Origin: Eukaryota sp. GEM-RC1
Lineage: Eukaryota
Length of the DNA stretch: 64,000 nt
NCBI GenBank assembly: GCA_040285855.1
Contig: JAUFOQ010000017.1
Span: 1,302,001-1,366,000 of the forward strand
Direction of reading: 5' to 3'
Positions 13,865 to 62,751 of the stretch are shown piece by piece (within the stretch, counting starts at the first letter, position 1; each line of letters begins with the position of its first letter). The notes beneath the pieces were generated by a model, which saw only the letters and a program-made list of their open reading frames with translations, was not told the DNA's origin and did not search any database. Position numbers and translations under genes: made by a program.

Positions 13865-15735
13865 CTTTTTATGGAACAAAAACACTAAAATAGACACAAA
13901 TACTAGAACTCAATATCATAAAAGCAACAATCATTGCCATTAAAACTCACATCAGCTTTTTCTTCATAAAATATACTGAAGCTAATAGAGCTTTCGAAAT
14001 CATGATAGGAATTGTTTTAAATATTGTAAAACAAATATGATTCAACCAAAATTTGAAATCAAATTTCTTGTTCATTCTTTTTGACCACTTTCTCAAAATC
14101 AGAGAGAAAACAAAGAGCATCTCTACCAAGTCGACCATAAATTGAAATTGCAAAAGAACATAATTTGTACTCAACATGTCTAATATGTTTGAGAGCAGTC
14201 AGTGGTTCATCATATTTGTTTCTCTTGTACTGTTCTGAAGAATTCAGTGGAGAAACTTCATTTTTAGCATCCTTGAATGCACTTTTTTGCAAACATCCAC
14301 AGTAATCACATCAACAACGGTTAGTTCATCATTAACTGATGGAACTATAACATCAGCTCTTCGTTTACCAAAAGTCTTATCAGAATAACTATTTTTTGAA
14401 TTATTGATTTCCAGTGATCTCAACAGTGGCTCAACGAAAGATTCGATTTTGTAGGACTTACACATTGCATGAATTTGATCTCTAACAGCATCATGAATAC
14501 AAGTTCTATAAGTAATGAAACGATTGCAACTCAAAAGGCGAGAAAAAGTAACTAATTTACCACATTTACATTGAAGATCATTGGGTAAATTAGAGGGCCA
14601 CAAGAAACATCGAAGTCTGAATGTTGTAGTCCATTGATGATCATTCAACAACAAACCATAGATCTGAGGAATTTGGTTAATCAAAGCAACTGAAGAACTG
14701 TCCTTTAAATCGATTAAAAATTTGCAAAAGCTGGATTTTTTTCTTTGGCCGAGCCAAGTCGAATTTTAAAATCCAGACATTCAAAATGTTTTAAAAGGTG
14801 TTTTTGGAGTTTCTTAAGAGCAAATTTTAACGAGGTGACACATCGTTCTGGTATTTCACAAATATCTGCTGGAAACAAGTTTGCCAGAGGTCAGGTGAAA
14901 TTAGTGACAATTCTGATCTCAAATTTACCAAGAAAAAACTACTTGTCGAAACAAGAAGATTTTCTTGACTTGGGTACCGTCTACAGAAGTCAAAGACAAA
15001 ATTCTTACCACCACCAATGAAAGCAGATTTGGTCCACCATTTAGACGAAGTAAAACCAATACCACCAAGATGAGGATCTGAGAAGATGTGATTGTTCAAA
15101 GCAGCAGGATCCACTGATAACAAAAATGCAAGAAAGTCAGTACGAATTTTGTTAAAGCTTCTACAGAAGTTATAAATAAGGACAGGGGGGAGAGATCGAA
15201 GCAGATGGGTAACTTTTCCTGAATAACAAATTTTTAGCATAAAGAATTTGAGATGTTTTTCCAATTGTAGTTCCTTAATTTGATCTAATTCTTTTCGCAT
15301 TGAATCCAAATATACATTCAGATCTTTAACAATGTTGTCATGTGAACCAAGATAACAACCTAGAAATCTAAAGCTTGAAGATAAATAGTTCACAAAGGGA
15401 ACCTCTAAAGAATTAACAATTAAAGTTACAGGTACCTTGGCAATCAAAAAACATTTTTGCACATTTAATTGAAGTCCAATAGCATCGTACAAATCAGCAG
15501 CCTGATTCGCAATAATACGAAGAGTTGACATAGGAGCAATAAAAGAAATGTCATCCATATAAGCTACGATTTCTAAGTCGGCATGTTCTTCTTTGAGTTT
15601 TTTCAGGATTGGATGAATAGCCAAACAAAAAAAGAAGGGACCAAGAGGATCTCCTTGTTTAACACCAGAAACAGAATTAAGAACAAATGAATTAAAAACT
15701 AAGTCATAAGAGTGACCATAAAAACAATGAAAAAC
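13865..15735 (-). mobile_element. 5'-truncated RLE-type (CRE-like) non-LTR retrotransposon: RT, zinc knuckle and RLE, frameshifted
   Basis: GVKQGDPLGPFFF and AYMDDI RT motifs, FLGCYLG, LGGIGF thumb, CxC..SC..HDAVRD, RRADVIVP..DVITVD..KRNKY. Confidence 0.92.
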
Positions 15736-16433
15736 GCTGATAATTAGTATGATTAAGCATGTTCAAAAAATCGATTTAGCGACTGAATCGTTTTTGGTCA
15801 AACTGTATAGGTTTTGTCCCAAATCCTTTAAAGATAGCAAACACAATTGATTTTTTCTACAATCTAAGACCAAAAGTCCTAACTGTTTACAGATTGGCCA
15901 CACTGACATTTCAAATTGTGACGAAAATTTTCAGGCAAAATTTATGAACGCAAACGACTGTGATTTAATGGCCAAGTGAAAATAAACAGCACACTTGAGA
16001 GAGTTGAGTAATCAAACATGAATCAGAATCAGAGCTGTTAGATCCATCAAACTAGAAATTTGCAGCAGTCCAACGTAATGATCCCTTCTTTCGAAAATAC
16101 TTGTTAGTTTCCCTTTGTATTTGTTCAGATAGAGTTGAAGATTAGTTAAATCATCGTTTTGGACACATGCTCTGGGGAACATTGCGACCAAACGTAACAA
16201 ATATAATTTGTTCAATGGTTGGTTTAAGTCAAAAGACCTGCGCACGAATAAAGTCCATCACTATGGAGTTGTACTGTTGTAGTAATACCCGACTATTTTG
16301 CATATTTTACAATGTTTTTCATAGTTGTTTGCCCATCGTTATTCAGTCATGAGATTCATGTTCCAACATCGTATTTATACCCTATCCGATAATATTTACA
16401 AATAAAACATGAATTGAGCGTGAAGAGGGAGAG

Positions 16434-18405: not shown

Positions 18406-19571
18406 TATTCTACTGTATTAATTCTTTAAAGCAACTCAAATGATCCCTTTGGATCATTAAATTTGCCTTCATTCTGGTAAGTCATCGTGAGGACCAAACA
18501 AATTCTCAAACTCTGGATTAACAGAAGTGAATAGTTGATTAATTGAATCTAAACTTAGTTTTTTGGTGATGACGAATCCTGAATCTTCAATCAATATTTA
18601 ATTTCAATTTACGGCTGAACAACTTTATCACAACAACTGACAAAATCGATACTACACCAGTATTTTTTGACTGCAGTACTCAAAAGATATTAAATGATCT
18701 ACAATTACTCTTGAATCACTCACAATTGGTCTACCAGAACTATCTCATCTTCTAGTTTACGATTCAAATACTTTCGAAAATTATATAACAGTACAATGAA
18801 AAAAATTGCACGTTGAAGAGTATCATTAAAATTGTACATTGATCACGTCATACTGGTCAAAATTCATACATGAACAATTATGATCACACATCACAATTGT
18901 GATCACAATAATTCGACCATTTCTACACTTTGTGATCACAGTGTGATTTGTGAAGTACAACTATGGTTGAAAGTAATCCGTGAGGATCGAGTGAAAGCAC
19001 TTCATCAGCACTTGTTTTATGTTGATTTGGGATTGTTCTTGAGGAAAAGAATGAAGTCGTCAAGAGAGGAGGATTTAGAGATGATTTGTTTGGGAGGGAG
19101 AGATTGTGATGATTGGTTGAGTGAATGAGAGGGATTGATAGCAGGGATTTTGCGTGGGGGTATAGCAGAAGAGCTTTTCATCTAGAATGAGAAAAAAACG
19201 AAAGAGCATACGGAAGATAAGCGACCATAACGTGTAGAAGATGCTAGAGAACGACCAACAGTAGAAGAAGACTGAAATTGTAAGCGCTGAATCAAGTCAG
19301 ATTCAGATGATTCAGACGCCATATATATAGTAGTTTAAGAACGGACAATTTGGGGATGAAGATTTTTTCATAAAGTGAATTCTTTTGATGCATTGAGTTC
19401 TGATATGGAAGTTGTCAGTTCAGGCGTTCCTTTGTTCTACCTTTGTTGCATGGTTTGTTTACTCACTTTTTGTCATTCAAACACGATCACGTGTTTAAGG
19501 ATATAATATCATAATCATATATATAATTTTATATACTCAGCTATACATGTACTTAAAATTAAATAAAGTAA

Positions 19572-20171
19572 TTAAAGTTTATAATTCCTACGTTTTTTCT
19601 TTACTTGGCTGGCCTTTTTCCCCAATTTTCTTTGGGGCTCTGGCAGTTTCATCTGCTGTTTTTGCCTCCGTTGGAAAATTTGTGTTCTCAACCAAGCAGC
19701 CACCGCATCTGGATTATCAAGCGGATCCAGTTCTGGCGGCATGTTCAGCAACTTCAATTTTGCATCACATTTTTTTACAAGATCATAATAATCCATGATT
19801 GCAAACACCTCAGCTTTGTTGTCAATGGGGTGAAGTTCTGGTGGGATGAGATCACGATGGTCATCAAGGGGATTAGAAATCTCACTAGCTAGACGGTCAT
19901 GTTCACGTTGCAGAACATTGGCTCGAATTCTGAGTGATGATAACTGAGAGTGTACATTGCGAGCTACTTCTCCAAGTTCTTGGTATTCCAAGCCTAATTG
20001 AATTGCTTTAACAGCGTCCTGCTGCAGAGGCCAAGTGACTTTATTGATTTGGTTTAGAAGTTGAAGGAATTCAGGAGAAGATGAATCCGGAAGATTTCCT
20101 GATGGATCGCTCACATTAGAAAGAAGTTCTATAAGTTTGTCGTATTCAGATTCTAAGGACTCGAATGACAT
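19572..20171 (-). CDS. Hypothetical coiled-coil protein (weak resemblance to THOC5 N-terminus)
   Basis: 199-aa ATG-initiated ORF with host-like composition and a basic C-terminus. The family assignment is weak. Confidence 0.6.
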   Translation of the reverse strand: MSFESLESEYDKLIELLSNVSDPSGNLPDSSSPEFLQLLNQINKVTWPLQQDAVKAIQLGLEYQELGEVARNVHSQLSSLRIRANVLQREHDRLASEISNPLDDHRDLIPPELHPIDNKAEVFAIMDYYDLVKKCDAKLKLLNMPPELDPLDNPDAVAAWLRTQIFQRRQKQQMKLPEPQRKLGKKASQVKKKRRNYKL

Positions 20172-20248
20172 TAAAGAAGTGGGTGATTAAGAACTCAAAA
20201 TAAGTGTTTCCACACTCTATATGGAACTCTATAGGTTAGAAGAGCTCC

Positions 20249-20825
20249 CTTTCACCTTTCTATCCCCCAATAGCCATAAGGCTATTAAGAGCATACAAAC
20301 AGGATTGAGTTACTCGCTGTATGTTCTTTTGTCTTTTCTTCCTCTTTCTTTCACCTTTCTATCCCCCAATAGCCATAAGGCTATTAAGAGCATACAAACA
20401 GGATTGAGTTACTCGCTGTATGTTCTTTTGTCTTTTCTTCCTCTTTCTTTCACCTTTCTATCCCCCAATAGCCATAAGGCTATTAAGAGCATACAAACAG
20501 GATTGAGTTACTCGCTGTATGTTCTTTTGTCTTTTCTTCCTCTTTCTTTCACCTTTCTATCCCCCAATAGCCATAAGGCTATTAAGAGCATACAAACAGG
20601 ATTGAGTTACTCGCTGTATGTTCTTTTGTCTTTTCTTCCTCTTTCTTTCACCTTTCTATCCCCCAATAGCCATAAGGCTATTAAGAGCGTACAAACAGGA
20701 TTGAGTTACTCGCTGTATGTTCTTTTGTCTTTTCTTCCTCTTTCTTTCACCTTTCTATCCCCCAATAGCCATAAGGCTATTAAGAGCATACAAACAGGAT
20801 TGAGTTACTCGCTGTATGTTCTTTT
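20249..20825 (+). repeat. 99-bp tandem array (~5.8 copies) of a structured RNA-like motif
   Basis: Units start at 20249, 20348, 20447, 20546, 20645 and 20744. Each has a pyrimidine tract, hairpin aatagcc-ataa-ggctatt, and stem aagagcataca/tgtatgttctt enclosing aacaggattgagttactcgc. Confidence 0.95.
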
Positions 20826-20832
20826 CAAGATT

Positions 20833-20874
20833 GATCTTACGCTTTGTGGAGACATTGAATCTAATCGAGGTCCA
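20833..20874 (+). other. 2A (StopGo) peptide, degenerate
   Basis: DLTLCGDIESNRGP; one substitution (CCA>CGA) away from the D(V/I)ExNPGP consensus. Confidence 0.8.
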
Positions 20875-23756
20875 CGGAACAAGACAAAAAGAAGAATCCG
20901 ACCCAACCAGAAAGCGGGATACCATGCATTTGTATCCATCGACAAGGAAGAACCATACTATTGGATCAAGTATGATGAACCGTTACACTTCCAGTCTCAA
21001 TGGCTTGGGATTTTACAAACTACCACAGCCAGATGTAACACCCATGAAGAAGCTGTACAGTTTGCAAAACAAACTATCAAGACAATGACTGAACACGATC
21101 CTGAAGATCCTGAATTAGAAAGATCCCCACCAGACGACCAGCTGTCTCTGAGTAATTGCTACACTGTTCTCGCCACTGGTATTGATCCTCTTCCCAAATC
21201 AGATAGGTTCATTCAAAGACAGGTTGTTCCATTTTGGTCTGAAGATGAAGAGCAACAATTTTCTTCGTCAACTCAAAAAGAACTACTATTTTTGTTTAAT
21301 TTGAAAGATAAAGTCGAGCCTAATACTTCATCGTTTCTTTTTGGTAAGAAATTTTTCAGAAAAAAACCTCAGACGACAAATCAAACGTCCCAGATCCAAC
21401 GACCTAGAAAAACTCCGGTCAGTAGTCTTTTGTACCACTAATGTTCATGTGGTGGAGTTCCAAAAAACAAGCAATCGAAGATACAGAATCAGCTGAAGAC
21501 AAAGAAATAGCTCAAGATGATTCTAGATTCAAGAATGCCAGATGAAATGAAAATTAATTTCAGAGCAAATTTGAATTTACAAACCAAATATTCGGCTGAC
21601 TGGATTGATTTAATTCTGGACGAAGTAACATCTTCATGCTGTCTCGGATTCAAAAATTTCAGCAAACAAGATCTCTTGATGGTTTATTCTTTACAACAAT
21701 CAGTCGAACAAGAAGTGGGATTTGTGACCAATATTCGAATATTATTAGCTGATAGAACGAAGAATCCCACCAGTAGGCCAAATATTAATGGTTGTAAAAC
21801 ATATTTGAATAGAGGTATTTCTAAGGATCTACCAATGTGTGAAGTCAAAGTTCATCAGGCTTTTCAAGAATTTTTGTCTTATGTTCGACAATGTGAGCAT
21901 GTTGGTGAATCAGATATTTTTATGATTGGATCTCTGGCTGACGTGATGGCTGCAAGTCTCAATGTTCATTTTGCAATAGTCAGTAAATATCATCGACTAT
22001 CAAAGACAACTCCCTGGTCAAAGATGTCTGTAATTACCCAAGACCCTATTTGCCCACTTACTGTACTGTTTGCAGTCAAAATCAGTTCTGGTAGTCACTT
22101 TTTGCGCCAAATTTCTGCCATGGTGGATTTAGAAATTCCTTTACGTGTTCAATACCAATTAGGAATTATTCCTAGAGCACCACAACTACCAAGTTGTTTA
22201 AGTTTTAAAACTGATTCAGAACTCTGTCAAAATTTAAATGACTCTCAAAAAAAGACAATTGAAGAAATTGGAAAATTGCATGTAACCTCACCTGGTCTAT
22301 ATGTCATTCATGGAGCACCTGGTACAGGGAAAACAACGACAATTGTCAAATTGATTATGTCTTTTTGTCTAACAAATGCAAGGTTTGGGTAGCTGCTCCA
22401 TCGAATAATGCAGTTGACGTAATATTAGCCAAGCTAGTTGATGAACAGTCAGTTGATGAACAAAAATTGATGCGAATAAGTTCTCAATTACATCCTTTAC
22501 CAGAAGTTCAACCGTTCTTGTTAAGTACAAAGTTAGAACAAAAACAAGCAAAAGAAGAAGCGAAAAAACAAGATGAACAAGATGCTCAAGATTTATTAGA
22601 TCAACAAGCTGTCAGACTTCCTCCACTTAAACAACCAAGAAGGAATATTAAACATGGTCAGCCACATACCACTACACCTGCTGCTCAAGATGAGGAAGAA
22701 GAAAAGGATGATCTTTCGTGGATTTCTGAAGAATATGATGTTCTCTTCACAACATTAGCAGGAGCGAGCAGTTACAGAAATCAAGGTATTTTTAAACCGC
22801 AACTATTAATTATTGATGAGGCCTGCCAGTCAACTGAGCCTGAACTAGTGGCTCCATTACGAATTTGTAATGAATTTACATCCATTGTAATTGTTGGAGA
22901 TCACAAACAATTACCCCCTGTAGTATTCAGTCAAAACTCAGGGTTGTCCAAGTCTTTGATGGAAAGATTGATTGATCAATCTGATTTGACACATCACTTT
23001 GATAGAGAACGCTACACACTACTGAATCCACAATATCGTCAATTCTCAGAATTGTGGGCATTTTCTAATTCAATGTTTTACAGTGATCAAATTGACATTG
23101 TCGAACCAATCACTGGTGAACAATTGACATGTGCCTAAAGACATTTTGTAAATACATGGGGGTCAATTCAAGATTATTCTGAAGAATTGGCAGGTAGTTT
23201 ATTCAACAAACACGAAGCCATTGCTGTTATTAAAGGAGTTTGTGATTTTTTGAAGGATCACAAAGATGCATTGGAAAAAGTTCTCAAGCGTTCATTTAGT
23301 GTGGCAGTGTTGACACCTTACATGGCACAGGTTGATCAACTCAGACAATTGTTTGACTCTATTGAACCACCTTTAGACAATGTACAAATATCAACAACTG
23401 ACGCATTTCAGGGAAAAGAAGTAGATTTTGTATTTGTCAGTACAGTGAGATCCTATCAAGAAGGCAACATTACTCAAAGTCTAGGTTTTTTGACAGATGA
23501 GCGAAGAATGAATGTTATGCTGACAAGAAGCAGGTTTAGTAATTTTATATATGGGCATGAAAAACTTTTACGAACAAATCTGCTTTGGGAGAGTTTAGTG
23601 GATTACTATTCAGCTTCTACTAACGATTACGAATCTGAATTAGACCAAATTCAACGTCGTCGGCAGACTGCACATGCATCTCAAGTATCAGATGAGATTG
23701 TTGATGTCAATGCTGAAGGTTTAGGGAAGTGTTCCCCAAATTTGGGGAAAATGTAG
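20872..23756 (+). pseudogene. Frameshifted Upf1/DNA2/NAM7-like SF1 helicase (~950 aa reconstructed); possible N-terminal RNase H1-N/Cauli_VI-like domain
   Basis: LNDSQ (Q motif), GAPGTGKT, AAPSNNAVD, IIDEACQ, VGDHKQLPP, SLMERL, QYR, LTPYMAQV, TDAFQGKE, RRMNVMLTRSR across ORFs 21517-22392, 22365-23138 and 23187-23756. YHAFV...CNTHEEAVQF follows the 2A. Confidence 0.88.
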
Positions 23757-23896
23757 CAGATCAGTACAAGTGTAGTTCTTGTTGTGTTTTAATTTTTTGT
23801 TTTATAAATGGATTTAATCTTTGTATTGTTTGTTTGTTTTTGCACTTTCATCGTTTTTTTTCAATGACCTGTACCCTAGATCAAGATTTTAGTGAG

Positions 23897-23973
23897 TGTC
23901 ATTACAAATGTTGTATCTACAAATATTGTCATTACAAATGTTGTATCTACAAATATTGTCATTACAAATGTTG
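23897..23973 (+). repeat. 30-bp tandem repeat (~2.5 copies)
   Basis: tgtcattacaaatgttgtatctacaaatat at 23897 and 23927, partial copy at 23957. Confidence 0.9.
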
Positions 23974-24309
23974 AACAAAATCAACATCTATGTTTTGAAA
24001 ATGTAGCAGTAGTTCTTATGTTTTGTTTTATTTATATGAATGTCATTGCGGTGCTCAACAAAAGTAAATGTAAAGATTTTCAACTATAACTCAGTTCAAA
24101 TGAGAAGAGTTTTGACAGAGTGCATATGATGGTGGAGTTAGCTGTAGTGGTTCGTAACACTGGGAAGAAGCTAAATAAACACAGTGAAAGATCACGATTG
24201 AAAGGATCTTCACCTTTTAAGATCATAGGGAGGTGTGCTCATGAAGAGAAGACCAGTACAACATATGATGAAGATGCCATAATGTCAAGTTGTCAGTGTC
24301 AACATCAGC

Positions 24310-24317
24310 TATAAATA
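24310..24317 (+). promoter_or_regulatory. Candidate TATA box for the Fanzor-polyprotein unit
   Basis: tataaata about 50 nt upstream of the first structured motif copy; weak evidence in AT-rich DNA. Confidence 0.3.
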
Positions 24318-24361
24318 GTGGAAATCTTTTTGACCTGTATCATTTTTGTTCCCTTTGTCGC

Positions 24362-24505
24362 TTCCAAACACTGCAAAGTGTTTCGGGTGATAGTAACAGG
24401 ATTAAGTTACTCGCACTATCACCTTTTTCTTCTTATTTGATGCTTTCCAAACACCACAAGGTGTTTCGGGTGATAGTAACAGGATTAAGTTACTCGCACT
24501 ATCAC
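24362..24505 (+). promoter_or_regulatory. Two tandem copies (83-bp period) of the structured RNA-like motif
   Basis: Hairpins aaacact-gcaa-agtgttt and aaacacc-acaa-ggtgttt; stem gtgatagt/actatcac enclosing aacaggattaagttactcgc. Confidence 0.75.
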
Positions 24506-24556
24506 TCGTCATTTCTCAATAGTCATTTGAACCAACCGTCATCACAGTTTGTTCGT

Positions 24557-24598
24557 GATTTAACCACGGATGGAGACATAGAGTCAAACCCTGGTCCT
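24557..24598 (+). other. 2A (StopGo) peptide, intact consensus
   Basis: DLTTDGDIESNPGP matches D(V/I)ExNPG/P. Confidence 0.93.
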
Positions 24599-25230
24599 TT
24601 TGTCACTGAGGAAGAAATCACCACATTGAAACCCTCCGTATGGCTCGATGATTCTGTTGTTGACTTTTATGGTGAGTACATCACCGAGAATAGTGAGTTA
24701 TGCCAGTTTTTCCGTATCGGGAATCTTCATGCTGCAGTGAGTTATGGCAATTTTGACACATTAGCTCTTGAATTTCTAAATGTTCAGAATTCAATGCGAG
24801 AGACTGGGAAAAGGTTTTTATTTATTCCAATAAACGATGGTGTCTTTCGTGATACAGCAACTCATTGGACTCTACTTGTTTGTGACATTGATAGTACGTC
24901 ATTTTTTTCACTTGATCCAATGTACACTGACAGTTCAACTCAACTTTCATTTGACGTTTTAACTCAAAATGATCAAGTTGTAAGTACATTACAGGAATAT
25001 TTGCGTCATTTTGGAAATTTTTCAAATTTAGGAAAGCTCCCAGTTATTAAACATCAAACTCCCAACGACTGTGGACCATATATCTTAATGTATATGCAAC
25101 GATTTGTTCATTTGGCATCAACATCAGACAATTTCCAGGAAATTTTGTCTCAAGTCCAAGGTTATGTCGATTATGATGCTTTTAACATGAGAAAACAAGT
25201 TCTAAATCTGATAGCAACCACGCATCCTAT
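24596..25230 (+). pseudogene. Ulp1/SENP-like C48 cysteine protease domain 1 of the polyprotein
   Basis: WLDDSVVDFY, FLFIPIND, THWTLL (His), SLDPM (Asp), QTPNDCGPYI (Cys). Confidence 0.88.
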
Positions 25231-25571
25231 TCCTTTTGCTATACTTGCTGTAAGTATTGTACATGAGTACTTTTCAAACAACATTCAAGCACATGTTCAA
25301 GAACACAGTGCCATAGTTCATTCTTCACCTGGTACTTCTGAAATAGCCGAACATCCAACAGCAATTTTATCTCCTGATGAAACTCGACAAGTGCCATTGA
25401 CTATACCCAATCAACTTATGGACTCAAATCTTACAAGGAAAACTCGTCAATCTAGAAAATATCCTCCAAAAAAGAAGAAGTTTTCTCAAAAATATCAAAT
25501 TATACAACATCAACATCGTGGAATTCTAACACAATCTCGTCCTAGACCACTTTTACTAAGATCTGATTAAA

Positions 25572-26210
25572 TTGACACACTGGAAACCCAATGTACTGCT
25601 TCATGATTCTGTCATTGACTTTTTTGGTCAGTACATTGCTCAAAAGAGTAATCGATGTGAATTCTTTGAAGTAGCGAACATTCAAGATGCAATCAATCTT
25701 TCACAATATAACATAATGTTTGAACAATTTAGAGAAGTTCAATTATCAATGGAAAAGTCCAGTAAAAGACACACTAAAAAGTGTAAGAAACGTTTCTTGT
25801 TTATTCCAATAAATGACGGTCTCTTTGGTACAACAGCCACTCACTGGTCACTGTTAATCTGTGATATTGAAAACAAACAGTACTTCTCTATTGACTCAAT
25901 GTGTACAGAAGATCAACAATCTCAGTTTTCTAACACTTTATCACGTATTGACAATATCATTTCACAATTACAGCAATTCCTGTTTGATATGGCAAATTTC
26001 AGCTATATAGCTAGAGTACCAGTTCAACAAGTCCAAACTCTTAATGACTGTGGTCCATTTATTCTAATGTATATGAATAAATTTGTCGAGTGTGAATCAA
26101 CATCAACAAATCTTTTCGAAATTCTGTCTAAAGTCTCTAATTGTGTTGTTTATAATGCCTTAGAAATGAGAAAACAAATATTGTCTCAAATCGTTACTAC
26201 TCACCCTGAT
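25572..26210 (+). pseudogene. Ulp1/SENP-like C48 cysteine protease domain 2 (internal duplication)
   Basis: LHDSVIDFF, FLFIPIND, THWSLL, SIDSM, QTLNDCGPFI; colinear paralogue of domain 1. Confidence 0.88.
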
Positions 26211-26599
26211 GAAGATCACCCTGATGAATACCGACAATATGTATGTACTCATGCCCAAGGTATTTTAAATGAGTTTTATTCTGATGAGATTGAATCACCT
26301 GTTAATCAACCTGTACAGTGTCAATCTGAAAGTTTAACTCCTGAAACAATGGTAGATGATAGTAGTTACAAGGAAACGGTATCAAAGCTCACTTATCAAA
26401 ACTTTCTCAAAAGTTTACCTGGCAATTTGTCTAATCGGAAAAGAAGCGTCTTTTGAAGTTAAAAATGATTGAACAAGCGCTGGAAGAAGCTGAAGATTTA
26501 TTTCAAGAAAGTTATCATAACTTTAGTCGTCCAGAGTTGACAGATCTTCCAGAAATACATTTACCAACTCCAAAAATAAATGTTGCTGCTTGTGAGAAA

Positions 26600-26755
26600 C
26601 CTGATACAACAGAAACAGCAGAAACAATTGAGTCATCTGAAACCACTGAAACAACAGAAGCAACAGAAACAATTGAGTCATCTGAAACCACTGAAACAAC
26701 AGAAGCAACAGAAGCAATTGAATCATCTGACACAGCAGAAACAACAGCAGCAACA
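26600..26755 (+). repeat. Thr/Glu-rich tandem linker repeat
   Basis: gaaacaattgagtcatctgaaaccactgaaacaacagaagcaaca repeated; encodes (ETIESSETTETTEAT)n. Confidence 0.85.
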
Positions 26756-26904
26756 GGTAATAGAAAGACAACAGTTGCCAAAAGGAAAACCACCAAACCA
26801 AAAGCAAGTGGAGTATCAAATGCGACAAAGAGTTTGAAACCTCCTAAAAAGCCAATTATTGAGTTTCTGAAACATTCCCAATTACCAAATAACTCTAATC
26901 ATTG

Positions 26905-27640
26905 TTCAATATTGTCTTTTGATATTGAAACTAGAGAAATTGATCAAATTCCTGCAGAAACACTTACAGAGTAGTTGGATGATCAAAGAAGGAACGAGAA
27001 TGAATCTCTCAAAATGAACAGTGACGCAGAAAAAGAAGTGTGGATTCAAAACCAACAAGTTTTTATGATTTCTGGAGTGTTTGATCATTTTATAAAAGAT
27101 CAATTTTACCTTCAAGACAATTTTGTTGCAACTTTAGAGTTGACTCATGAATCTGATGTTGAACTGCCACCTGATTGTAGAAACCTTCGATTTTTTGAAA
27201 ACGAAAAACAGTTACTAGAGTTTTTTGTCAACTATTTGAATGATAAAAATCCCTCAGTTTTAACTGGATTTAACATAACTGATTTCGATAATGTTATTTT
27301 AGGCAACAGGATTGTTACACTTGGAGTCGACTTTCCAGAACCAATGCTAGATGAAACAACAAAATCTCATTTATCATCTCTATGGCAAAATGTTTGTTCT
27401 GAATGGGCTGGTAGAATTGTCTGTGATTCATACGTTTATGCTAAGCAATTTATTGTTTCCAAAATGTTCAAAGTCTTTAAGATCATTAAGTTGGTTTTTA
27501 TTAAACGAATCTAAAGGACGTCTTCATGACGAATTTCACCACTTATTGCCTATTGATTGTGTTGTTGAAAGACCTCAAGAAGTTGTGAACTATTGCTTCA
27601 AAGATAGTGTACTAGCATTGAAGTTGTTTTTATTATTTCA
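26905..27640 (+). pseudogene. PolB-type DEDDy 3'-5' exonuclease domain of the polyprotein
   Basis: ExoI LSFDIET, FENEKQLLEFF, ExoII LTGFNITDFD, DSYVYAK, SLRSLS, ExoIII NYCFKDS; in-frame TAG at 26972-26974 and one frameshift. No polymerase domain follows. Confidence 0.85.
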
Positions 27641-27649
27641 ATCAAATAA

Positions 27650-29775
27650 AATCGTTCGTCCAACTTTTGTAACACATAAGACTACTCTAAAGTCTATTGT
27701 CAAACATTTTGGATTAACGTTATTACTCGATTATTATGCTCAATTGGTTCACAAACTTAGAATGCATACTTCCTATTTTTTGAAGTTGTTTTTATTACAC
27801 ATGGATAAGATTGGTGAAAAATTACCTTTAATTACAAGGAAAGAAGTAGAACATATTCAAACTCTGTTAAGAAACATCTCTGCTGAACATCATGAGATTG
27901 AATTATGTAATCAAGGACGACCTCCTACATTTAATGAACACTTGAAAAACTTTGTTTCAGAAGAATACAAACAAGTGATGCTCAACAATGGAGGAATTCC
28001 ACTCTTCCAGCTGCTCATTCCTCACGGCTTATGGCAATGGTTGGTGAAACTATTGAATCGAACTTGGACACAAACATTAAAATGCGATATGCTCAATACA
28101 TTGACAAATTTATTAATGTTTATTTTCAAAAGACTGATCAAGAAGAAACAATGTCAAAAAAAGAACAGTCTGTTTTTCGTTGGAGACTAAGACAAGTTAA
28201 AAATGTCTTTCTTGAAGGTAACAGAAATGACATTCCAAAAACCCCTGCAGAAATAAAACAATTTATTCAAAGACGTAATACAGAAATTCTTCAAGACGAC
28301 AGTAATGGAAGTTTGAACATTGCAGGTAAAATTAAACTTCTATGGGCAACTAACGACTATGTTGAAGGATTGTTTAGAGATAAATATTTTATTGATGTTC
28401 TCTTCCCACCATCAATTGATGTTCAAAATGCTAATGGTGTTTATAAAAAGAAAGTCGTTAAATCTCTACTAAAATCAGTTCGTGAACATCCCCAGTCCTT
28501 TATTAAATCTGCGATTCAAATAAATAACTATCTTGAAAGTGAAGGAGCAAGTGCTTACAATGTAATTCCTATTGTTCGTCACGTCACACCAGGTTTCTTT
28601 GAAATAGACACACAAGGTCTTTGGGGAATATTACGTTCCACTTTGTCAACAAAACAAGTGAATGTCAAGAAGAAAATGTCTGAGTGGAACACAAAAGTTG
28701 AAATTGAACACATGTCTCCTGTTGAACAAAAATCAATTCTGGTCCTACTTTTTCAACTTTAATCGTCCATTTATAAAGAAAGGTTATAAGTTTAACAATA
28801 CCATTAAAACTGATGGTTTCTCTGCCTGTGTTGAACTTACCAGAGAGGACTGTGTGGGAATGTCCTTTAAACCAGACAGTGCAAAGTTCTCCAGTAAAGA
28901 AGAATATGTTCAAGACTATGATATTGAAGAGTTTTCATTGAAAACAAAAGTGTTTATTGACCCTGGAAAACAGATTTACTCTATTTTTGTTCAGAGAAAG
29001 TAAATAGGCCATTTCCTGAACAAAAAGCCCGTGAAATGAGAAACAAAGAATACGAGTGGCGGAGATTGACAGAGACAGAATGGTCCAGATGGTCAAGGGT
29101 CCATCAAAAGTTTAGAAGGGGAAAGAAAAAAGAATTCATTCTCCGAGATGGAAAGACAGTTGAAGAAGAAGAGTCAACATTGTCCAAAGAAAATTCGAAA
29201 TCCACTCTTTATGACACATTCTATGACTATGTGAGTTCCAAACTAACAGTTATTGAATCAACATTTGATTACTACTGTTTGATGATATGGCGCATTCAAA
29301 AATGCAAAGATACGTCCATATTCAAAAAACAGAAAGTAAGTTGTTGAAAAATATGACTGCAAAAGGATGGAATAAAAATGACTGTGTATTGATGTTTGGT
29401 GACAATGGTAATAAGAGGCAGAACCTAAAACACCTCCGATCAAGTAGAGGTGTGGGTTGGAGAAACTTCTTTAAGAGAAATGGTTTTAACATCGTTCTTG
29501 TAGACGAGAGTTACACGTCTTCAAAGTGTCCTACTTGTTGGAAGCCAGTTAAAGTGTTCAAAGAAATCAGTAATCCAAAACCATGGAAAAGAGAGAAGAA
29601 ACCTCTGGTAAAGTGTCACGCTTTGTTGAGATGTAAGTCCCAAGAATGTAGAGAAGAATGTCATGGTAGCGCCAAGGTTTGGAATCGTAACAAGTTGGCA
29701 TGTATCAACATCAAAACCATTGTGGAGCATCATTTGGAGCGGGGTCTAGGAGTTAGACCCAGTTATTTGTCATAG
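27650..29775 (+). pseudogene. Fanzor (eukaryotic TnpB-like, Fanzor1-type) RNA-guided nuclease domain, frameshifted
   Basis: KTTLKSIVK, FLKLFLL, EIDTQGL, IKTDGFSACV, RuvC-I FIDPG (D at 28959), FGDNG, RuvC-II VDESYTSSKCPTC (E at 29506), zinc finger HALLRC..EC, RuvC-III WNRN (normally NRD; 29689) ..ACINI. Confidence 0.88.
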
Positions 29776-29945
29776 TCATAGTCATAGCCTTTATTTACTA
29801 CAGTGAATCTGTAGCATTATTGAATCTTCATACATTAAAGCCTCAGTACTTCCAACCTTTTCAAGAACTGATGTAGCAAAAGGAATGAGGATTCACATTG
29901 TAGTAAATGATTTACATTATAAGGCATAATTCTACCTCTCTGGAT
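29776..29945 (+). ncRNA. Putative Fanzor omegaRNA (scaffold ~29787-29925, followed by flank-derived guide)
   Basis: Nested stems directly after the Fanzor stop: gcctt/aaggc; atttactacagtgaatc (29793-29809) / gattcac-at-tgtagtaaat (29890-29908); inner cctca/tgagg and cctttt/aaaagg. Confidence 0.65.
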
Positions 29946-29955
29946 TAGACCAGTG

Positions 29956-32253
29956 ATGTCCAAAATCGACAACGTTTCCTCAAATCAATGTCTTGATGAC
30001 TGCAGTTCCTCTTTATCTACCCTGTCGTCTTGTTCTTCCTCTGTGGGGACGATCCTTGATTCCTCTTCAGTTTCTTCCTGTGTGACAGACACATCTTCTG
30101 GGTCGATTCATTTTCAGTCTTCTCTACTACTATTGATCAATACCCACTTGCATTACGATCTTCGTTTTCCCTCTCAGTTGATGGAGTGGATTCATCAGTA
30201 TTCAAAAGAAATTGGTTATGTTAGCCGTCGCTTCTTTGAATTGTACTTGTCGTCAGTCAAAGTGGTTCTTGAAACAAATGCTATTGAAGTCCGTTCCAGT
30301 CACCTCCCCCTCCTTCTTTCGTTTGCTTCTTTCTTTTCAGCAAATGTACAATCTGTTTTGTTAGACACCCACCAGTATGAACTTTGCGAATCACTCATTC
30401 TTAATCATAATACAATTATTTCTGGTGTCACAATGGTGCTTAATCATGATTTAGATTATACATCTGACTCATTTTTCAAGTTTTGTGATGGATTGTTCGA
30501 TTCTTCTTCTACCATGTCCCTCCCTAGTCTTAAACGTTTAAAAATCATTAATAATGGATCCGGTTTGTTGAATGGTATTGTTTCTGGACTAATAAGTAAT
30601 AATACTTTGCTAGAATTGTCTGTTTCTGAAGTTTCCACGATGTATGAAATTTGGACCCTTGAAAAGATCTTTTCCTCAAACAAAACACTCAAAATAGTTA
30701 CTCTAGCTGATTTGTGGGGTTTAGACATTATGTCATCTTTTTATATGTCCATTTTTAATAGTTCGAGTATTAGAGTCCTTACTGTGTCAGCTACATGTCT
30801 TGATTTTGATGTATGTAATGCTCTGAAAACCAATTTGGTACTGAAAGAACTCACTGTTATTTGTAATTACCTGAAAGAAGAAGCTAAAGGTCTCTCGGAG
30901 GTGATCAAAGGGAACTCATGTTTGAAAAAACTAGAGCTAAGGGATTATAACTATGATTTAACATCAATTATTAGGTCCTTTGAAACAAATTCTTCTTTAT
31001 CAGAATTGGTAATTTCCAAATGTGAGTCATCGCATCATGTAAGTTTTACTGACATGGAGGTTCAGTCGTTAGAAGAAATGGTGCAAAAGAATACTGGTTT
31101 ACTTGTTTTAGGTATTAGTACTCAATGTTTCAATTCTTTTCAGCTTAAAAATGTACTTTTAGCAACGGAACATAATCAAATACTTAAGAAAGTGATCCTT
31201 GGTTTTTCTAATTTTTTCTTAGACCCTTGCTCTGATTTATGCTGTTTAATTGCAGTTTATGAATCAATGGTTATTAAACCACTGTCTTGTCATGTTGATG
31301 TTGATCCTCACTTTGTTGACGTTGAAAATAGTGTGTTTTGTTTTTCACCAAAACGATGCACTCAAATTACAGACGAAGAAGTCTCATCTCTTAAATATTT
31401 TGTGAAGAGTTTTTGCATCAAAGAGCTTACTCTCAGTGGTTGTAGTTTTACCGATGAAGCGATTACTGCTTTGTGTGATTTAATCAAGGATACTGAGTCA
31501 TTGACCTCTATTGACTTAAGTTCTCTCACTGTTGTGAAGCGAGATTCTCATCATGACTCTGATCACGATAACTCTGTTGTTAACAACTCCTTTTCTTGCA
31601 CTGAATATTCAGATGATGAAAGATCTTCCACTCAATTCTTTCTTCCCGATTGGTCTGACAAGGAACTTTCTGATGATCATTTTTGCAAAATAGTTAAGGC
31701 ACTGCAGTTCAATTCTGGTTTAAATAATGTTGATCTTAGTAATAGTATTAGTGGTTTCAATACTCTTTTGACTGTTTTTGAACTAATCTCATTGAGCAAA
31801 TTACCACCCACTATTGATGTTTCCCCCCATTATATATGTAGTGAAGATGGTGTGCTTGACTTTTCTCCCAAAGGTCGTTCCAAAATAACTTGCCAGGAAA
31901 TCTCGTACATGCGGTCTCTTATGGATTGTTTTAGTATTGAGTCGCTTGTCCTTTGTGGTTGTAGCATTTTTGACGAAACTTTTTCTCATTTGTGTGATTT
32001 AATCAAAGGCAATAATTCTTTGACTCTTATTGACCTGAAATCCTGTTGTTTTGATGATGATACGTTTAGTTATGATCCATTGGAAAGCATTTTCGAAAAA
32101 TATATGGATTCTGAGACTGTCGTGGCATTAGTAAATGCACTGGAAGACAATTACACTATTTCTTTGATACTGCTTCACAGTGATTCCATCGATTCTGAAA
32201 CTGTTGAGTACGTGAATGAAGTCCGTGAGGATAGGATAATATGTTATTTATGA
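29956..32253 (+). CDS. RNI-like leucine-rich repeat protein
   Basis: Long intact ORF with repeated NxxLxxLxL / LTSIDLS / LTLSGCSFTDE motifs and a Ser-rich N-terminus. Confidence 0.82.
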   Translation: MSKIDNVSSNQCLDDCSSSLSTLSSCSSSVGTILDSSSVSSCVTDTSSGSIHFQSSLLLLINTHLHYDLRFPSQLMEWIHQYSKEIGYVSRRFFELYLSSVKVVLETNAIEVRSSHLPLLLSFASFFSANVQSVLLDTHQYELCESLILNHNTIISGVTMVLNHDLDYTSDSFFKFCDGLFDSSSTMSLPSLKRLKIINNGSGLLNGIVSGLISNNTLLELSVSEVSTMYEIWTLEKIFSSNKTLKIVTLADLWGLDIMSSFYMSIFNSSSIRVLTVSATCLDFDVCNALKTNLVLKELTVICNYLKEEAKGLSEVIKGNSCLKKLELRDYNYDLTSIIRSFETNSSLSELVISKCESSHHVSFTDMEVQSLEEMVQKNTGLLVLGISTQCFNSFQLKNVLLATEHNQILKKVILGFSNFFLDPCSDLCCLIAVYESMVIKPLSCHVDVDPHFVDVENSVFCFSPKRCTQITDEEVSSLKYFVKSFCIKELTLSGCSFTDEAITALCDLIKDTESLTSIDLSSLTVVKRDSHHDSDHDNSVVNNSFSCTEYSDDERSSTQFFLPDWSDKELSDDHFCKIVKALQFNSGLNNVDLSNSISGFNTLLTVFELISLSKLPPTIDVSPHYICSEDGVLDFSPKGRSKITCQEISYMRSLMDCFSIESLVLCGCSIFDETFSHLCDLIKGNNSLTLIDLKSCCFDDDTFSYDPLESIFEKYMDSETVVALVNALEDNYTISLILLHSDSIDSETVEYVNEVREDRIICYL

Positions 32254-32454
32254 TTTTTTGCTCTTCATCAGTACTTCTCATATTGTTGTTTATACATATA
32301 TATTGCTTGTAGAAAATACCACTTTTGTAACATAGTTTTGGATACCTAAATTCTAGGTACATGTAGGTTATAGGTATTAGGTATTTAGTTATATATGGTT
32401 TATTTTGTTTACTATATACCTATACAATAGTCTTTCTCCTAAGTTATGGTCATC

Positions 32455-32830
32455 TCGCTTTCCTGTTGATATCAAAGAAATTCCATATCAAAAAATTCTG
32501 TCTTTAAAATTTGCTTTAAAGAAGCTACAAAATCATTTATCAAAATATTTTGACGCTCAGATTTTATAGTTCGTCCTTGCTCGGTTAAGGACAAAAATCC
32601 AGTTTTCCCTAATTTTTTAATTGATTTAAAGGAGAGTTCTGCTGTGGCATTAATTAATCAAATTCCACAAGTATATGGTTTATTATTAAATGATCATCAA
32701 TGGACCACTACAATGACTAGGAGACTTCGTTGTATTTTATGCCATACAATTTGCCAAATGATCTTCAATGTAGCTGTGGAAAAGAATTAACGTTTTCTCA
32801 TTTGTTTCAATCTATGGCCGTTTAGGAAAC
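32455..32830 (+). mobile_element. Degraded RLE-type LINE fragment
   Basis: LKFALKKLQ..LINQIPQVYGLLLNDHQWTT, homologous to 14560-14880. Confidence 0.75.
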
Positions 32831-32885
32831 AATGCATAGAATTTGTTAAACGATTTCGGGAAAATCGAAAAAAAATAAGATGATC

Positions 32886-32945
32886 CATACTTGTGGATCA
32901 CACTACTTTTCCAGTGTGATCACAATCACAGCCACAATTTGTGAT
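32886..32945 (-). mobile_element. Isolated right end of the catacttgtggatcaca hAT family
   Basis: Reverse-complement match to 56085-56138. Confidence 0.7.
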
Positions 32946-33274
32946 AACAAAAAAACCAAGAATAATTCTTATATGAATATCTTTTTCTTTCTCTTAGTAC
33001 CTGAATGTATCAATTTGATTCAACTGCGAATAAAGATCTTTACCAACGGGAAACAACTTAGAGAGACATTTGATTGAAGAGAATTTGGATAAGACATTAA
33101 TCTAATTCAATTAAATCCATGATTGGTTACAAATAAACAGAGTTCTCAAAGAGATTTATTTTCACAATAATACAAAAAGAAATTCAATTCAAAGAAGCAA
33201 AGAATTGCATAAATAAAAAAGAGAGTTATAAACTCAGATTAAAATAGAAATAACAACACACTGTCAAATCATCA

Positions 33275-35609: not shown

Positions 35610-36130
35610 ATTGTACCTGTCAACATTCAATTGGTTAATTAAGTGGCAGTACTTTGTATTTTTCCTTTTTCAGCCACAAGAGCAGAAAAATCATCATCAA
35701 ATTTTTGGAAATTGATCTTGAATAACAAGGATCAACAAGAGGGAAATCCATGATAATTTCCTGACAAGACAACCAAGGACCAATCAAATCACCTCGACTT
35801 CTAACAACTTTTGGCTGATCAGAAAGATTAGCAAGTAAGGGTTTAATTTTCCCATGAAAACCATTAGCTTTAAACATATCCAAACATGTATCCCGGATAC
35901 TGTTGTGGATTATTGATCGAAAATGAATAAATTGAAGACAGTTAACTAAATGATGAAAATTTGAAGCCTTTGATCGACCACAAAGACATGAAGAAAGTTT
36001 CAAAAGACCTGAAGGCCATAAACCAAACCTAAGTCTCATGTTTATAAGCCATTCATGATCCTTAAGATTAAAACAAAATCTTCTTGGCAAATGAGAAACA
36101 AATGAAGACGCAGAGCTTGAAGAAATACCA
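35610..36130 (-). mobile_element. 3' fragment of RLE-type LINE (third subfamily)
   Basis: MRLRFGL..CLCG..HHLVNC..HNSIRD..RSRGDLI; near-identical to 57180-57670. Confidence 0.85.
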
Positions 36131-36789
36131 TTTAAAATTAGTCTATCATCAGTATATTGTTTCAATGTAATCAACAAACTGTGTTACAAAACCAGGAAGA
36201 GGCTATTCATGTATTGGGTTGACTATGGACGAGAACATACATATGGATTATTCCAAGACCATACCAGATATATATTTTCTCTGCAATACAAGTTATGGGT
36301 GGTGTCAGAAATTATTATGAAGTGACACGCTGAACAGGAAGGAAAATTTTAGTGTGTGTTGTTCAGTTCCTATTTTTCCTAATATACAACCATTCAAAGA
36401 AACTTAGACGCAAAATTTGACTCTATCAGTGCTATGCACTTGTGTGGAGATTGATAACTGCTTGCTGATGTTGTTTCTGACTAATCACTCGTTGGGTGAG
36501 GGTTATGAACGGAACCGCTGTTCTCATGTTTCTTGATTAATACCTCAATAACGATTGGAACAACTCTATCTTAACAATGGTTCTTTTTTTTTCCTTTAGA
36601 GGTTTCATCTGACATGTCATTTACTACGTCTTCTTTGCCGTTTACTGAGTCTGAATTTTTTTGCGAATGATTAAACCATCAGTCTGGAAGAATTTCATAC
36701 CTGTAATTCAACCATAAATAACTCTAAAGTGGTTGACTCCCAACTTAATTTTTGTGTAATTGGGTACTGTTTATAAATGTCAAGACCAA

Positions 36790-38063: not shown

Positions 38064-38966
38064 TCACTCATGACCAACCTTAATATCTAACATGGTTTTG
38101 GTAAATCCTTTCAACAACGACAGTTTCTCAAGAAGTGACTCATCACCGGCATCAAGTCGCTGCAAATGAGATTCAGAGAGATTAAAAAAAGACGAAACTC
38201 TAGTAAATAAATCAGTTAGAGCCAGATTCGCACTACTAATTGTAGCTAAATGATGTTGAACATTTCTAGTTCTAGCAAACAATGAATGCTCAAGTTGATC
38301 ATTCTCAGCGATCAAAGTATCTAACCTCTGCCTTATCTTATGCGTCTTATTATCATTAACAAGCTGAGTACTAAGCAAAGCGTCATCATCAAACACGGAG
38401 CTAGAAAAGTGTTCAGCGGACTGACTTTCCAGTTTCTCTTGTTGTTGCTGGAGCTGTTCGTTGGTGCGTTGAAGGGCGGTGTATCGGTTCATTACGTCCT
38501 TGGTAGAGGAAAAGTCCGAGGATATCATAATAACAGACTCTATGTAGTTCTTGTAGGGATCAAGGGCACTGAGAGAAGCTTGGAGGGAGTGAACTTCTGC
38601 ATTTAAGTCGGATAAGGTCTGTTTAGCTTCTTTAATTTCGGTTTCTAGTAGAGCAATGGCATGTCTCTCTGCATCAAAACGTTTGTGAGCACGGTGTAGT
38701 TTTGCAAGAGCTTCTTTTGGGTTTGAGGATTTTTTGGTGTTGGCAAAAGATTGTTGTTTGGCTATGAGTTCAGATTCCAGAACATCTAGAGCAGCTGACT
38801 GTTCTCTGTAGATTGCCCTCACTCGTTCAAGTTCCTGATGAGCATCACGTTCTCGTTGTCGAGTTTCAAGAAGTTTTGTTATTGTTGATTCGACATTGAG
38901 AGGTTGTAGTAAGTTGTGACAATTAGTTTCTTCATAACCAGTAGTTGTGATGAAGGATGAAGGCAT
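38064..38966 (-). CDS. CCDC42/CFAP73-like (DUF4200) coiled-coil ciliary protein
   Basis: TKLLE..E..L..R; YKNYIESV..DFSSTKDVMNRYTAL..TNEQL; coiled-coil throughout. Confidence 0.7.
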   Translation of the reverse strand: MPSSFITTTGYEETNCHNLLQPLNVESTITKLLETRQRERDAHQELERVRAIYREQSAALDVLESELIAKQQSFANTKKSSNPKEALAKLHRAHKRFDAERHAIALLETEIKEAKQTLSDLNAEVHSLQASLSALDPYKNYIESVIMISSDFSSTKDVMNRYTALQRTNEQLQQQQEKLESQSAEHFSSSVFDDDALLSTQLVNDNKTHKIRQRLDTLIAENDQLEHSLFARTRNVQHHLATISSANLALTDLFTRVSSFFNLSESHLQRLDAGDESLLEKLSLLKGFTKTMLDIKVGHE

Positions 38967-39915
38967 TGATTAGATTGTTCAAGAGAAATATGCTTTCACT
39001 TTGAACCTCTTCACATACGCTCTCTTCTTCTGCGCTACCTCCTCCATGAGATAACGTGAACCTCATCAAACATAACATGAAGTATCTTTGCTAGTGTTCA
39101 AGTCTAACACCGAAGACTTCTTCTCCGATTACCATCTCTACTTGGTCTCGCGATGCTGCGATGTCTCGCGACCGCTCTTGCATCCCAACAGGACCTTCGA
39201 TCTTGCTTCTTGAAGGTTTGCCCACTTCCTCTCGTTATTCCGAACGTGTTACAGTTTTCTGTGGAGCTCCTTGCAGCCGGTTGCCTTCTCGAAGTCTAGA
39301 ACTCCTCTCCCCGCCTCACTGTCCGATCTAGCTAAGTCGAGAATCGTTTTCTCGTAGTTTCTATTCCAACTCTCTCTTTGTCAAAGTACCTACTCTTCAT
39401 TGTTGTTGTTGCTATTTGATCTTCTCTTCTCCAGCTAAAACATGTGTGTGGGTGAAAGACATTGGTTGATCCTCACCAGCAATCTTCAAAAGAATCAAGC
39501 AGCTATTGAAGTCTCTATTCCAGAGATTTTTGTATCCTTCTCAACTCACTAAACCCCTACAATTGACCTTCTTCTGTCTCTTTCTACCACATCAGTTTGT
39601 GGTCATTTTCTCTCCAACTAGACCAATCAATCAGCTCAAAAATTTGATTGAACTTCGGTTGAACTCTTCTTCTACTGGAAGTTTGAATTCTTGACCTTGA
39701 GGAAGTTTTACGTGTCATTCTTCTTCTTGGTGGTCAATCTCCGTGTAGTTGACTTTTCTTTTGTAATGTTTTAAATTTGTTAATGGTTCTGGTCAGTCTT
39801 GAAAGCAATTTTCATTACTCAGAACCCCTCCTCCCGTTTTATCACGTCACCATTCAGTTTTGATTCTTAAACGCATTACATAGTGTTCAATTGTGGCATT
39901 ATTTTCAAATTTAAA
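38905..39915 (-). repeat. Dispersed repeat family copy overlapping the CCDC42-like 5' end
   Basis: Colinear with 44225-45245; inverted copies at 48520-49220 and 53505-54260. Confidence 0.85.
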
Positions 39916-40010
39916 TATTTAAGTGGAATTTTGAACTACAATTTGAAGACTATGGTATCTTCGACAAGTTTAACTGACGAACGTAATCAAACAATTAATT
40001 TATCTGTGGA

Positions 40011-44224: not shown

Positions 44225-45245
44225 ATGTAGTAAGTTGTGACAATAAGTTTCTTCATATCCAGTAGTTGTAATGAAGGATGAAGGCATTTGATTAGATCCC
44301 AAAATTGACGTCTCATTGCTTTACTGGTGAACCTCTTCACATACGCTCTTCTTCCGTGCTACCTCCTCCACGAGATAACGTGATCCGCATCAAATGTTAC
44401 ATGAAATATCTTTGCTAGTGTTCAAGTCTAACACCGAAGACTTCTTCGCCGATTGCTATTTCTGTTTGGTCTCGCGACCGTTCTTGTACATCAGCAGAAC
44501 CTTCGAAGTTGCTTCTTGAAGGTTTGCCCACTTCATCTCGTTATTCCCAACGTGTTACAGCTTTCTGTGGAGATCCTTGTGTATGTAGATGGCAGGCGGT
44601 TGCCTTCTTGATTTCCAGAACTCCTCTCCCCGCCTCACTTTACGATCTTCGTTGCTCTGTCGAGAATCGTTTTCTCGGAGCTCTACCTTCTGTCTTAGTT
44701 TTATCTCTCTCTCCTCCTCTGAGAGAGGTAACTGAATGCCTACTCTTCATTGTCTTTGATCTTTGATCTTCCCTTCTCCAGCTAAAACACGCGTGTGGAT
44801 GAACTACATTGGTCGATCCTCACCAGCAAGATTACACTCAACAATCTTTAGAAGAATCAAGCAGCTGTTGAAGTCTCGATTCCAGAGTTTCTGAACTCAT
44901 CATCACTTGACTTCATCTGCCTGTTCTTACCACATTAGTTTGTGGTCATTTTCCATCCAACTAGACCAATCAATCAGCTCAAAAAGTTGATTGAACTTCT
45001 GTTGAACTATATTCCTCTTCTTTTGGAAGTCTGAATCCTCAAAGTTAGGCTTCCGTGTGTCGTTTAGCCAATCTGCCTGTAGTTGATTCTTCTTTTGTAA
45101 TATTTCAAATTTGTTAATGGTTCTGGTCAGTCTTGAAAGCAATTTTCAACACCAAGAATGCTTGTTCTATCCCGTAACCATTCAATTTTGATTCTTAAAC
45201 GCATTATATAGTGCTAAATTGTGCTATTAATTTGAAATTTAATAT
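44225..45245 (-). repeat. Dispersed repeat family copy carrying a duplicate of the CCDC42-like 5' end
   Basis: Colinear with 38905-39915, including gaaggatgaaggcat (start-codon region). Confidence 0.85.
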
Positions 45246-49220: not shown

Positions 49221-49299
49221 CAAGCAGTGAACCAATGAAAGTTCATATTATATGAAACATATTTCTCAGCAATAAAGACAGTTTATTGATGGAGGGTAC

Positions 49300-54230: not shown

Positions 54231-54269
54231 GGTTCCAAGTGAAATCATATTTCTCTTGACACTTTGGAG

Positions 54270-56138: not shown

Positions 56139-56146
56139 ATCAGAAC

Positions 56147-56733: not shown

Positions 56734-56759
56734 ATTGTACCTGTCAACATTCAATTGGT

Positions 56760-57165: not shown

Positions 57166-57179
57166 AACATTCAATTGGT

Positions 57180-57750: not shown

Positions 57751-57788
57751 AAACAAACTTCTTATTTGATGAAAATCATATTATATCA

Positions 57789-61862: not shown

Positions 61863-61869
61863 TCATCAA

Positions 61870-62745: not shown

Positions 62746-62751
62746 AGAAGT

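Follow-up and report, generated by a model that had tools for sequence, protein, structure and literature searches.

In the accessible portions of the published accounts (PMC11423790, PMC10432273, PMC10711439, PMC10530073), Fanzor1 RNAs begin with a 7-bp hairpin, SL1, and end in a terminal stem that closes at the guide, with no pseudoknot. The GtFz1 RNA overlaps the last 17 codons of its gene (available text of PMC11423790 and PMC10432273). GtFz1 is also active with an N-type RuvC triad, D/E/N, according to the available part of PMC11423790. We analyzed a stretch of 64,000 nt from Eukaryota sp. GEM-RC1 (contig JAUFOQ010000017.1, positions 1,302,001 to 1,366,000), called the window, in which a preliminary description had placed an omegaRNA-like nested stem-loop behind the stop codon of a Fanzor gene. 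Our reading is that this 3' fold is probably the omegaRNA scaffold of a multi-copy element with an exonuclease-fused Fanzor1. The features of the locus are collected in Table 1.

Table 1. Features of the Fanzor1 locus, with positions counted from the first nucleotide of the window.
Feature	Position	Strand	Remarks
Leader array 1: six 99-nt units, then a 2A-like motif at 20848	20249..20826	+	
2A-led cistron ending in a broken Upf1-like SF1 helicase	20848..23756	+	PF13086/PF13087
Leader array 2: two 83-nt units of the structured motif	24357..24511	+	
2A-like motif, then two Ulp1/C48 protease domains	24572..26456	+	in relatives, N-terminal in the same polyprotein
PolB-type 3'-5' exonuclease domain with intact DEDDy motifs	26900..27640	+	PF03104, E 2.6e-13; limits approximate
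Fanzor1 coding region (TDG motif, RuvC D/E/N, zinc finger)	27650..29775	+	start approximate; four frame changes in the window copy
Perfect 7-bp hairpin, candidate SL1 of the omegaRNA	29742..29760	+	in the last Fanzor codons; absent from the preliminary description
(GTCATA)x3 microsatellite containing the TAG stop (29773-29775)	29769..29786	+	read from the sequence
Main nested fold, candidate omegaRNA scaffold	29787..29925	+	predicted folding
Candidate guide B	29909..29923	+	inferred; end at the base of the long helix, as in viral Fanzor1 elements
Candidate guide A (preliminary description)	29926..29940	+	inferred; scaffold ending at the GC-rich closing helix
Flanking LRR-like ORF	29956..32253	+	ATG 30 nt past 29925

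The gene upstream of the fold had been called a Fanzor, and its motifs and relatives agree. The TDG motif of the WED domain reads IKTDGF in the window. A RuvC triad with a shifted Glu, the E lying before the zinc finger, reads FIDPGK, LVDESYTS, and WNRNK in the window copy and its relatives. Pfam returned a weak TNB match in the broken gene (~26900-29775). One relative, P0003, matched SpuFz1 and PpFz1 in the PDB with an E of about 1e-22. The AF2 model of another, P0004 (pLDDT 77.7), matched SpuFz1, PpFz1, and GtFz1 (E 5e-27 to 2e-17) with a TM to SpuFz1 of 0.78-0.80 by target length; weaker structural matches of the model were to Pol epsilon/delta and Cas12 chains. The view that a D-to-N change means a dead nuclease is ruled out by GtFz1, active with N in the portion of PMC11423790 available. 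FastTree analysis of 23 C-terminal pieces, from which seven proteins lacking the end motif were omitted, grouped the 10 N-type pieces in a single clade with a support of 1.0, separate from the WNRD proteins. Between the exonuclease and the Fanzor C-terminus the window copy carries five frame changes and one stop, and its reading frame is not intact. A run of at least 4 lies within 8 nt of four of the five frame changes (background 31%). As the changes are mostly near runs, assembly error and decay are not separable in this copy.

The Fanzor follows a PolB-type exonuclease in one gene. Exo I (D-x-E), Exo II (D), and Exo III (Y-x3-D) are all present in the window, where the exonuclease domain has one in-frame stop and one frame change. 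All three motifs were found in 14 of the 17 relatives scanned, with three models giving no match to one or two of them. The ORF pieces from ~26900 to 29775 make up one broken gene, and the frame 27351-28190 runs from Exo III to the Fanzor N-terminus with no stop between, so the fusion is not a gene-model artefact. Its homologs are NCBI hypothetical proteins of Eukaryota sp. TZLM3-RCL, TZLM1-RC, and GEM-RC1. Intact exonuclease-Fanzor fusions are found in three subfamilies (P0004, of 940 aa, P0008, and P0058). In P0037 and P0044 a 2A-like motif and a Ulp1-like domain are added upstream of the exonuclease-Fanzor, and in P0058 and P0061 a 2A-like motif lies between the Ulp1-like end and the exonuclease. 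The close gene models P0005, P0007, P0010, P0051, and P0052 (75-94% identical) are spread over four contigs of differing length in the GEM-RC1-named set, and TZLM3-RCL has two homolog clusters, of 10 and 6 members: the element is dispersed. The exonuclease-Fanzor fusion is multi-copy and retained in several subfamilies across three named protist strains. In the P0049 gene model a DEAH-type helicase is joined upstream of the exonuclease-Fanzor; a helicase of another class may accompany this subfamily.

In the window the fusion ends a longer cistron, 2A-Ulp1-Ulp1-exonuclease-Fanzor, spanning 24572-29775 (+). Leader arrays built from one structured motif precede both this cistron and the helicase cistron, and from the shared motif we infer that the helicase cistron probably belongs to the Fanzor element. 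From 20869 to 22230 (+), after the first 2A motif, the sequence looks by eye like an RNase H1 hybrid-binding domain followed, ahead of the helicase, by an OTU-like stretch; neither label has a supporting match in Pfam, PHROG, or homologs, and a homolog search with the region preceding the helicase returned none. Elsewhere in the window, decayed non-LTR fragments with RT and a downstream domain lie at 13867-15762, 35622-36183, 49322-50320, 56760-57775, and 61826-62750, and 56075-56761 looks by eye like a piece of a hAT-like transposase. A further 2A-like motif, the third and decayed, lies at about 40928 (-), with the start of a Ulp1-like domain after it. This motif lies upstream of a repeat family also present at 38905-39919, 44226-45246, 48372-49238, and 53379-54259.

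In its 2A motifs and tandem structured leaders the element is reminiscent of non-LTR retrotransposons, and RT-bearing non-LTR fragments occur in the window. No transposase was found in the 17 ORFs scanned within the window, and no reverse transcriptase except in a separate non-LTR fragment (14827-15762); the relatives scanned gave neither. The 3' fold might then be a cis signal of the element's 3' end and not a guide scaffold, whether as a 3' UTR structure, as a hairpin read in trans by an RT or HUH protein, or as a subterminal DNA inverted repeat. Helitron2 ends carry hairpins (PMC3627910), and only 4 of the 41 pairs of the fold are G-U, which leaves room for a DNA inverted repeat. We regard a cis signal as unlikely, as no poly(A) or tandem tail follows 29925, no RVT domain was found in the Fanzor relatives scanned, and a Fanzor with an intact triad needs an RNA, for which the usual place is the 3' end of the gene.

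With a GtFz1-type triad and this usual position, an RNA is expected behind the Fanzor stop, and a structured sense RNA is indeed predicted there. The ~140-nt segment after the stop folds back on itself as first described. RNA folding of the originally described span, 29776-29955, gave -40.2 kcal/mol and a z of -2.28, with 1 of 200 shuffles equally good. For 29786-29926, limits that were picked after the fold was known, z was about -4.0 on the (+) strand and -2.6 on the (-) strand, and none of 300 shuffles was as stable. This span is within the top 1% of the window, with 6 of 639 141-nt tiles folding equally well or better after GC correction. Wider spans, whose limits were not fitted to the fold, had a z of only -2.0 to -2.5. 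Such values, the six comparable tiles, and the five frame changes and stop from the exonuclease to RuvC are consistent with an incidental fold, arising from chance pairing in AT-rich DNA or from a small foldback insertion in a decayed copy. However, the location was set beforehand by the Fanzor stop, the long stem has no flanking TSD, and no second copy of the 3' segment is found within the window, making an incidental origin improbable.

The motifs quoted in the preliminary description all lie where it put them: GTCATA at 29769, 29775, and 29781, GCCTT at 29787, AAGGC at 29921-25, and the pairs CCTCA/TGAGG, CCTTTT/AAAAGG, and TCAGT/ACTGA. The GCCTT/AAGGC closing helix is retained for 4 bp (29787-90/29922-25, P 0.63-0.97), while its fifth pair is weak (P 0.22-0.33). 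The proposed 17-bp stem, 29793-29809 with 29890-29908, is complementary with a 2-nt bulge, but its upper half (29802-09/29890-97) has a P of 0.00, as do the inner stems CCTCA/TGAGG and CCTTTT/AAAAGG, in all four sequence contexts folded. The best fold containing the earlier stem register was rejected at -33.2 versus -40.2 kcal/mol. In the predicted ensemble the basal helix is instead 29793-29805/29896-29908, separated by a 15-nt bulge on the 5' side from a second helix, 29821-31/29885-95. Inside the latter is the TCAGT/ACTGA hairpin (29843-47/29867-71), the one inner stem of the original proposal that the ensemble contains. The pairs checked in the ensemble helices have a P of 0.91-1.0. An Rfam search of 19000-33000 of the window gave nothing at E up to 1 and chance-level matches only at E up to 10; no match reached the gathering score for the fold region. 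In the viral contigs and metagenomes searched, no DNA loci related to the close Fanzor family were found.

Ahead of this fold is the candidate SL1. Its pairs have a P of 0.84-1.0 in four contexts, and it ranks third in stability among the 68 perfect hairpins of at least 7 bp in the window. The loop is 5 nt long and without CG. No CG dinucleotide occurs in 29761-29960, so the hexaloop ending in CG that SL1 has in fungal and viral Fanzor1 RNAs is missing. The (GTCATA)x3 repeat would be the linker between SL1 and the stem. A GC-rich 7-bp hairpin of similar strength also lies at the end of the helicase ORF, at 23732-23749 (+); after it, a U-rich tract at 23750-23850 (+) folds back, with 15/30-nt tandem repeats following at 23897-23971. 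As had been proposed, the fold behind the Fanzor stop occupies the usual position of Fanzor1 omegaRNAs, and in the accessible published descriptions, too, a helix closes just ahead of a guide taken from the flank. This fit of position and topology is what points to an omegaRNA.

If the fold is an omegaRNA, we lean, at slightly better than even confidence, to a scaffold ending at 29925-29929, as first suggested. An end at about 29908, by analogy with the viral elements, is possible but less likely and would shift the guide by about 17 nt; an end elsewhere would be quite unlikely. A closing helix like that before guide A arises in 14 of 300 random flanks. From the RP codon to 29907 is 153 nt, and viral ends fall at 140-155 nt in 42 of 52. 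Neither guide A nor guide B has a significant target in the window. Three candidate left ends yielded only matches of 7-8 nt and no convincing TIR or TSD that would link the fold to ~20200. The gene model P0005 has 51 residues identical to the C-terminus in the window, beyond which it runs on into a protein that the window lacks. This suggests a copy with a different right flank; being a gene model, P0005 does not fix the end. The flanking ORF had been labeled an LRR gene. By eye it has 13 L-x-x-L-x-L-type motifs, consistent with that label, but neither a Pfam LRR match nor a PDB match, and we call it LRR-like. On the other side, 19572-20170 (-) holds a 199-aa helical ORF of unassigned family oriented away from the element. 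At the empty site, this ORF and the LRR-like one would lie head to head.

For calibration we used 71 distant viral Fanzor1 loci from giant viruses (L001-L071), 62 with the end motif. Their scaffolds covary strongly, with 17 of 26 pairs changing on both sides among 37 aligned sequences and a structure partly drawn by hand. The right end is sharp: columns carry 0.5-2.0 bits before it and 0.1-0.5 after, the last seven columns of the alignment being fixed by the anchoring pattern. Like the window, the viral Fanzor1 genes have the RP-x-YL end motif. By eye, the window fold has the same order as the viral scaffolds, in which a basal helix of the TTTAC/GTAAA type is followed by an insertion on the 5' side and then by a stacked second helix. 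The viral ends read WNRD in 62 of 62, in a search keyed on WNRD, and belong to a separate clade from the N-type proteins. R1, a covariance model of 37 viral ends, did not match the window fold; its best score in 29700-30000 was -0.1 bits on the wrong strand. R1 also misses or barely finds much closer viral relatives (17.9 bits in L067, none in L059 and L066), so this test of the window fold is weak. The viral omegaRNA shared by loci L001-L065 is well defined: its 7-bp SL1 bears a hexaloop ending in CG, a GAAA hairpin belongs to a three-way junction, and the right end is sharp. A second, gene-distant copy was picked up by R1 in L046, at 5876-6000.

In the leader motif, which is about 61 nt long, a 7-bp hairpin precedes an 11-bp stem whose 20-nt loop is almost invariant; pyrimidine-rich spacers follow the units. 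A 20-nt core is common to 8 leader units, against 0.01 expected by chance. Both sides are changed in 11 of 18 pairs and 98% of cells are paired, as counted on three distinct units from which the structure was also derived. The motif has no match in Rfam or in the 71 viral Fanzor loci, and its core has no exact match in the viral and prokaryote collections. Hammerhead, HDV, twister, and pistol ribozymes were rejected for want of an Rfam match and after a failed by-eye comparison with the motifs of these classes. The motif is a candidate ribozyme or translation leader. The P0051 gene model, from another copy, seems to run through three variant leader units. At 19470-19533 (+) a weak match to the leader model (22.7 bits, E 0.0014), mostly to the hairpin, may be a decayed leader unit. 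That the arrays are the true guide RNAs, a CRISPR-like array for Fanzor with the 3' fold secondary, could be argued from the paired changes and from a by-eye likeness to SpuFz1/PpFz1 (CC before the 7-bp stem, and a loop word one base off the fungal SL1 loop), but is very improbable as the SL1-like word is in the second stem instead of the first, the spacers do not vary among the six nearly identical 99-nt units, an array also precedes the helicase cistron, and the viral Fanzor loci lack the motif.

Taking the 3' fold as an omegaRNA scaffold, a sense transcript through the right end would be trimmed to an RNA of ~185-200 nt spanning the 7-bp hairpin at 29742, the long stem, and ~15 nt of host DNA. 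This RNA would load Fanzor, here probably supplied in trans since the window copy reads as broken. The loaded Fanzor might then cut the empty allele alongside a left-junction TAM, with repair from the filled allele keeping or spreading the element; such a role for Fanzors is discussed in the available part of PMC10432273. The exonuclease would most likely trim 3' DNA ends at the cut, which we propose would block simple re-ligation. Alternatively, it may trim the guide at its 3' end.

An omegaRNA behind a Fanzor is expected; the new part is the exonuclease fusion in a 2A-Ulp1 polyprotein. In the literature listings and openly accessible texts searched, no natural fusion of a Fanzor with an exonuclease was described. 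Four Fanzor papers (PMC10432273, PMC10530073, PMC10711439, and PMC3627910) do not use the word "exonuclease" in their main texts, and the accessible portions of bioRxiv 10.64898/2026.06.03.729735 and PMC11316075 (the latter without mention of Fanzor) hold nothing on a fusion. A broader and still speculative idea is that some protist mobile elements without a transposase of their own spread by an RNA-guided endonuclease-exonuclease. We only tentatively assign to that family a 2A-released Ulp1-exonuclease-Fanzor1 polyprotein, a helicase cistron, the 3' fold as guide RNA, and leader arrays that would represent a new class of structured RNA. If true, nature would here have an OMEGA nuclease able to process the ends that it cuts. 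The fusion is relevant to the question which function Fanzors serve for the elements that carry them, and a guide-directed nuclease that also trims the ends it makes would be directly useful in editing. As a related strain has intact copies, reconstruction and testing of the system are within immediate reach. Separately, the leader motif is an RNA with strong covariation and no Rfam match.

Tandem structured leaders occur in non-LTR retrotransposons, among which L1Tc/Ingi are of the APE type, and NeSL elements carry a Ulp1-type protease. A 2A motif is N-terminal in L1Tc/Ingi (available part of PMC3708506). The window element is similar to these in its N-terminal 2A-like motif, tandem structured leader, and Ulp1-type protease. 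Unlike L1Tc/Ingi and NeSL, it has no reverse transcriptase, APE, or tail that we could find, and its polyprotein ends in exonuclease-Fanzor. SpuFz1 and PpFz1 (PDB 8gkh, 9cf0) are the best sequence and fold matches of the window's protein family, and their RNAs have a hairpin and then a stem closing at the guide, a layout that the candidate RNA of the window would share. Their scaffolds are only 60-75 nt with a TT(A/G)TCG loop not found in the window, their triad is D/E/D and not D/E/N, and Spu-1 has 30-nt inverted repeats where none were found in the window. The linker from the candidate SL1 to the stem is 26 nt in the window versus 6 nt in SpuFz1. GtFz1, in the accessible parts of PMC10432273 and PMC11423790, shares with the window a D/E/N triad; its RNA has a 7-bp SL1, a long multi-stem scaffold, and an overlap with the last codons, as the candidate RNA of the window would. 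The GtFz1 scaffold is 150 nt and the window candidate 140-185 nt, with no likeness in sequence seen against the GtFz1 RNA as given there. Compared to GtFz1, the window protein has an N-terminal exonuclease and sits behind 2A and Ulp1.
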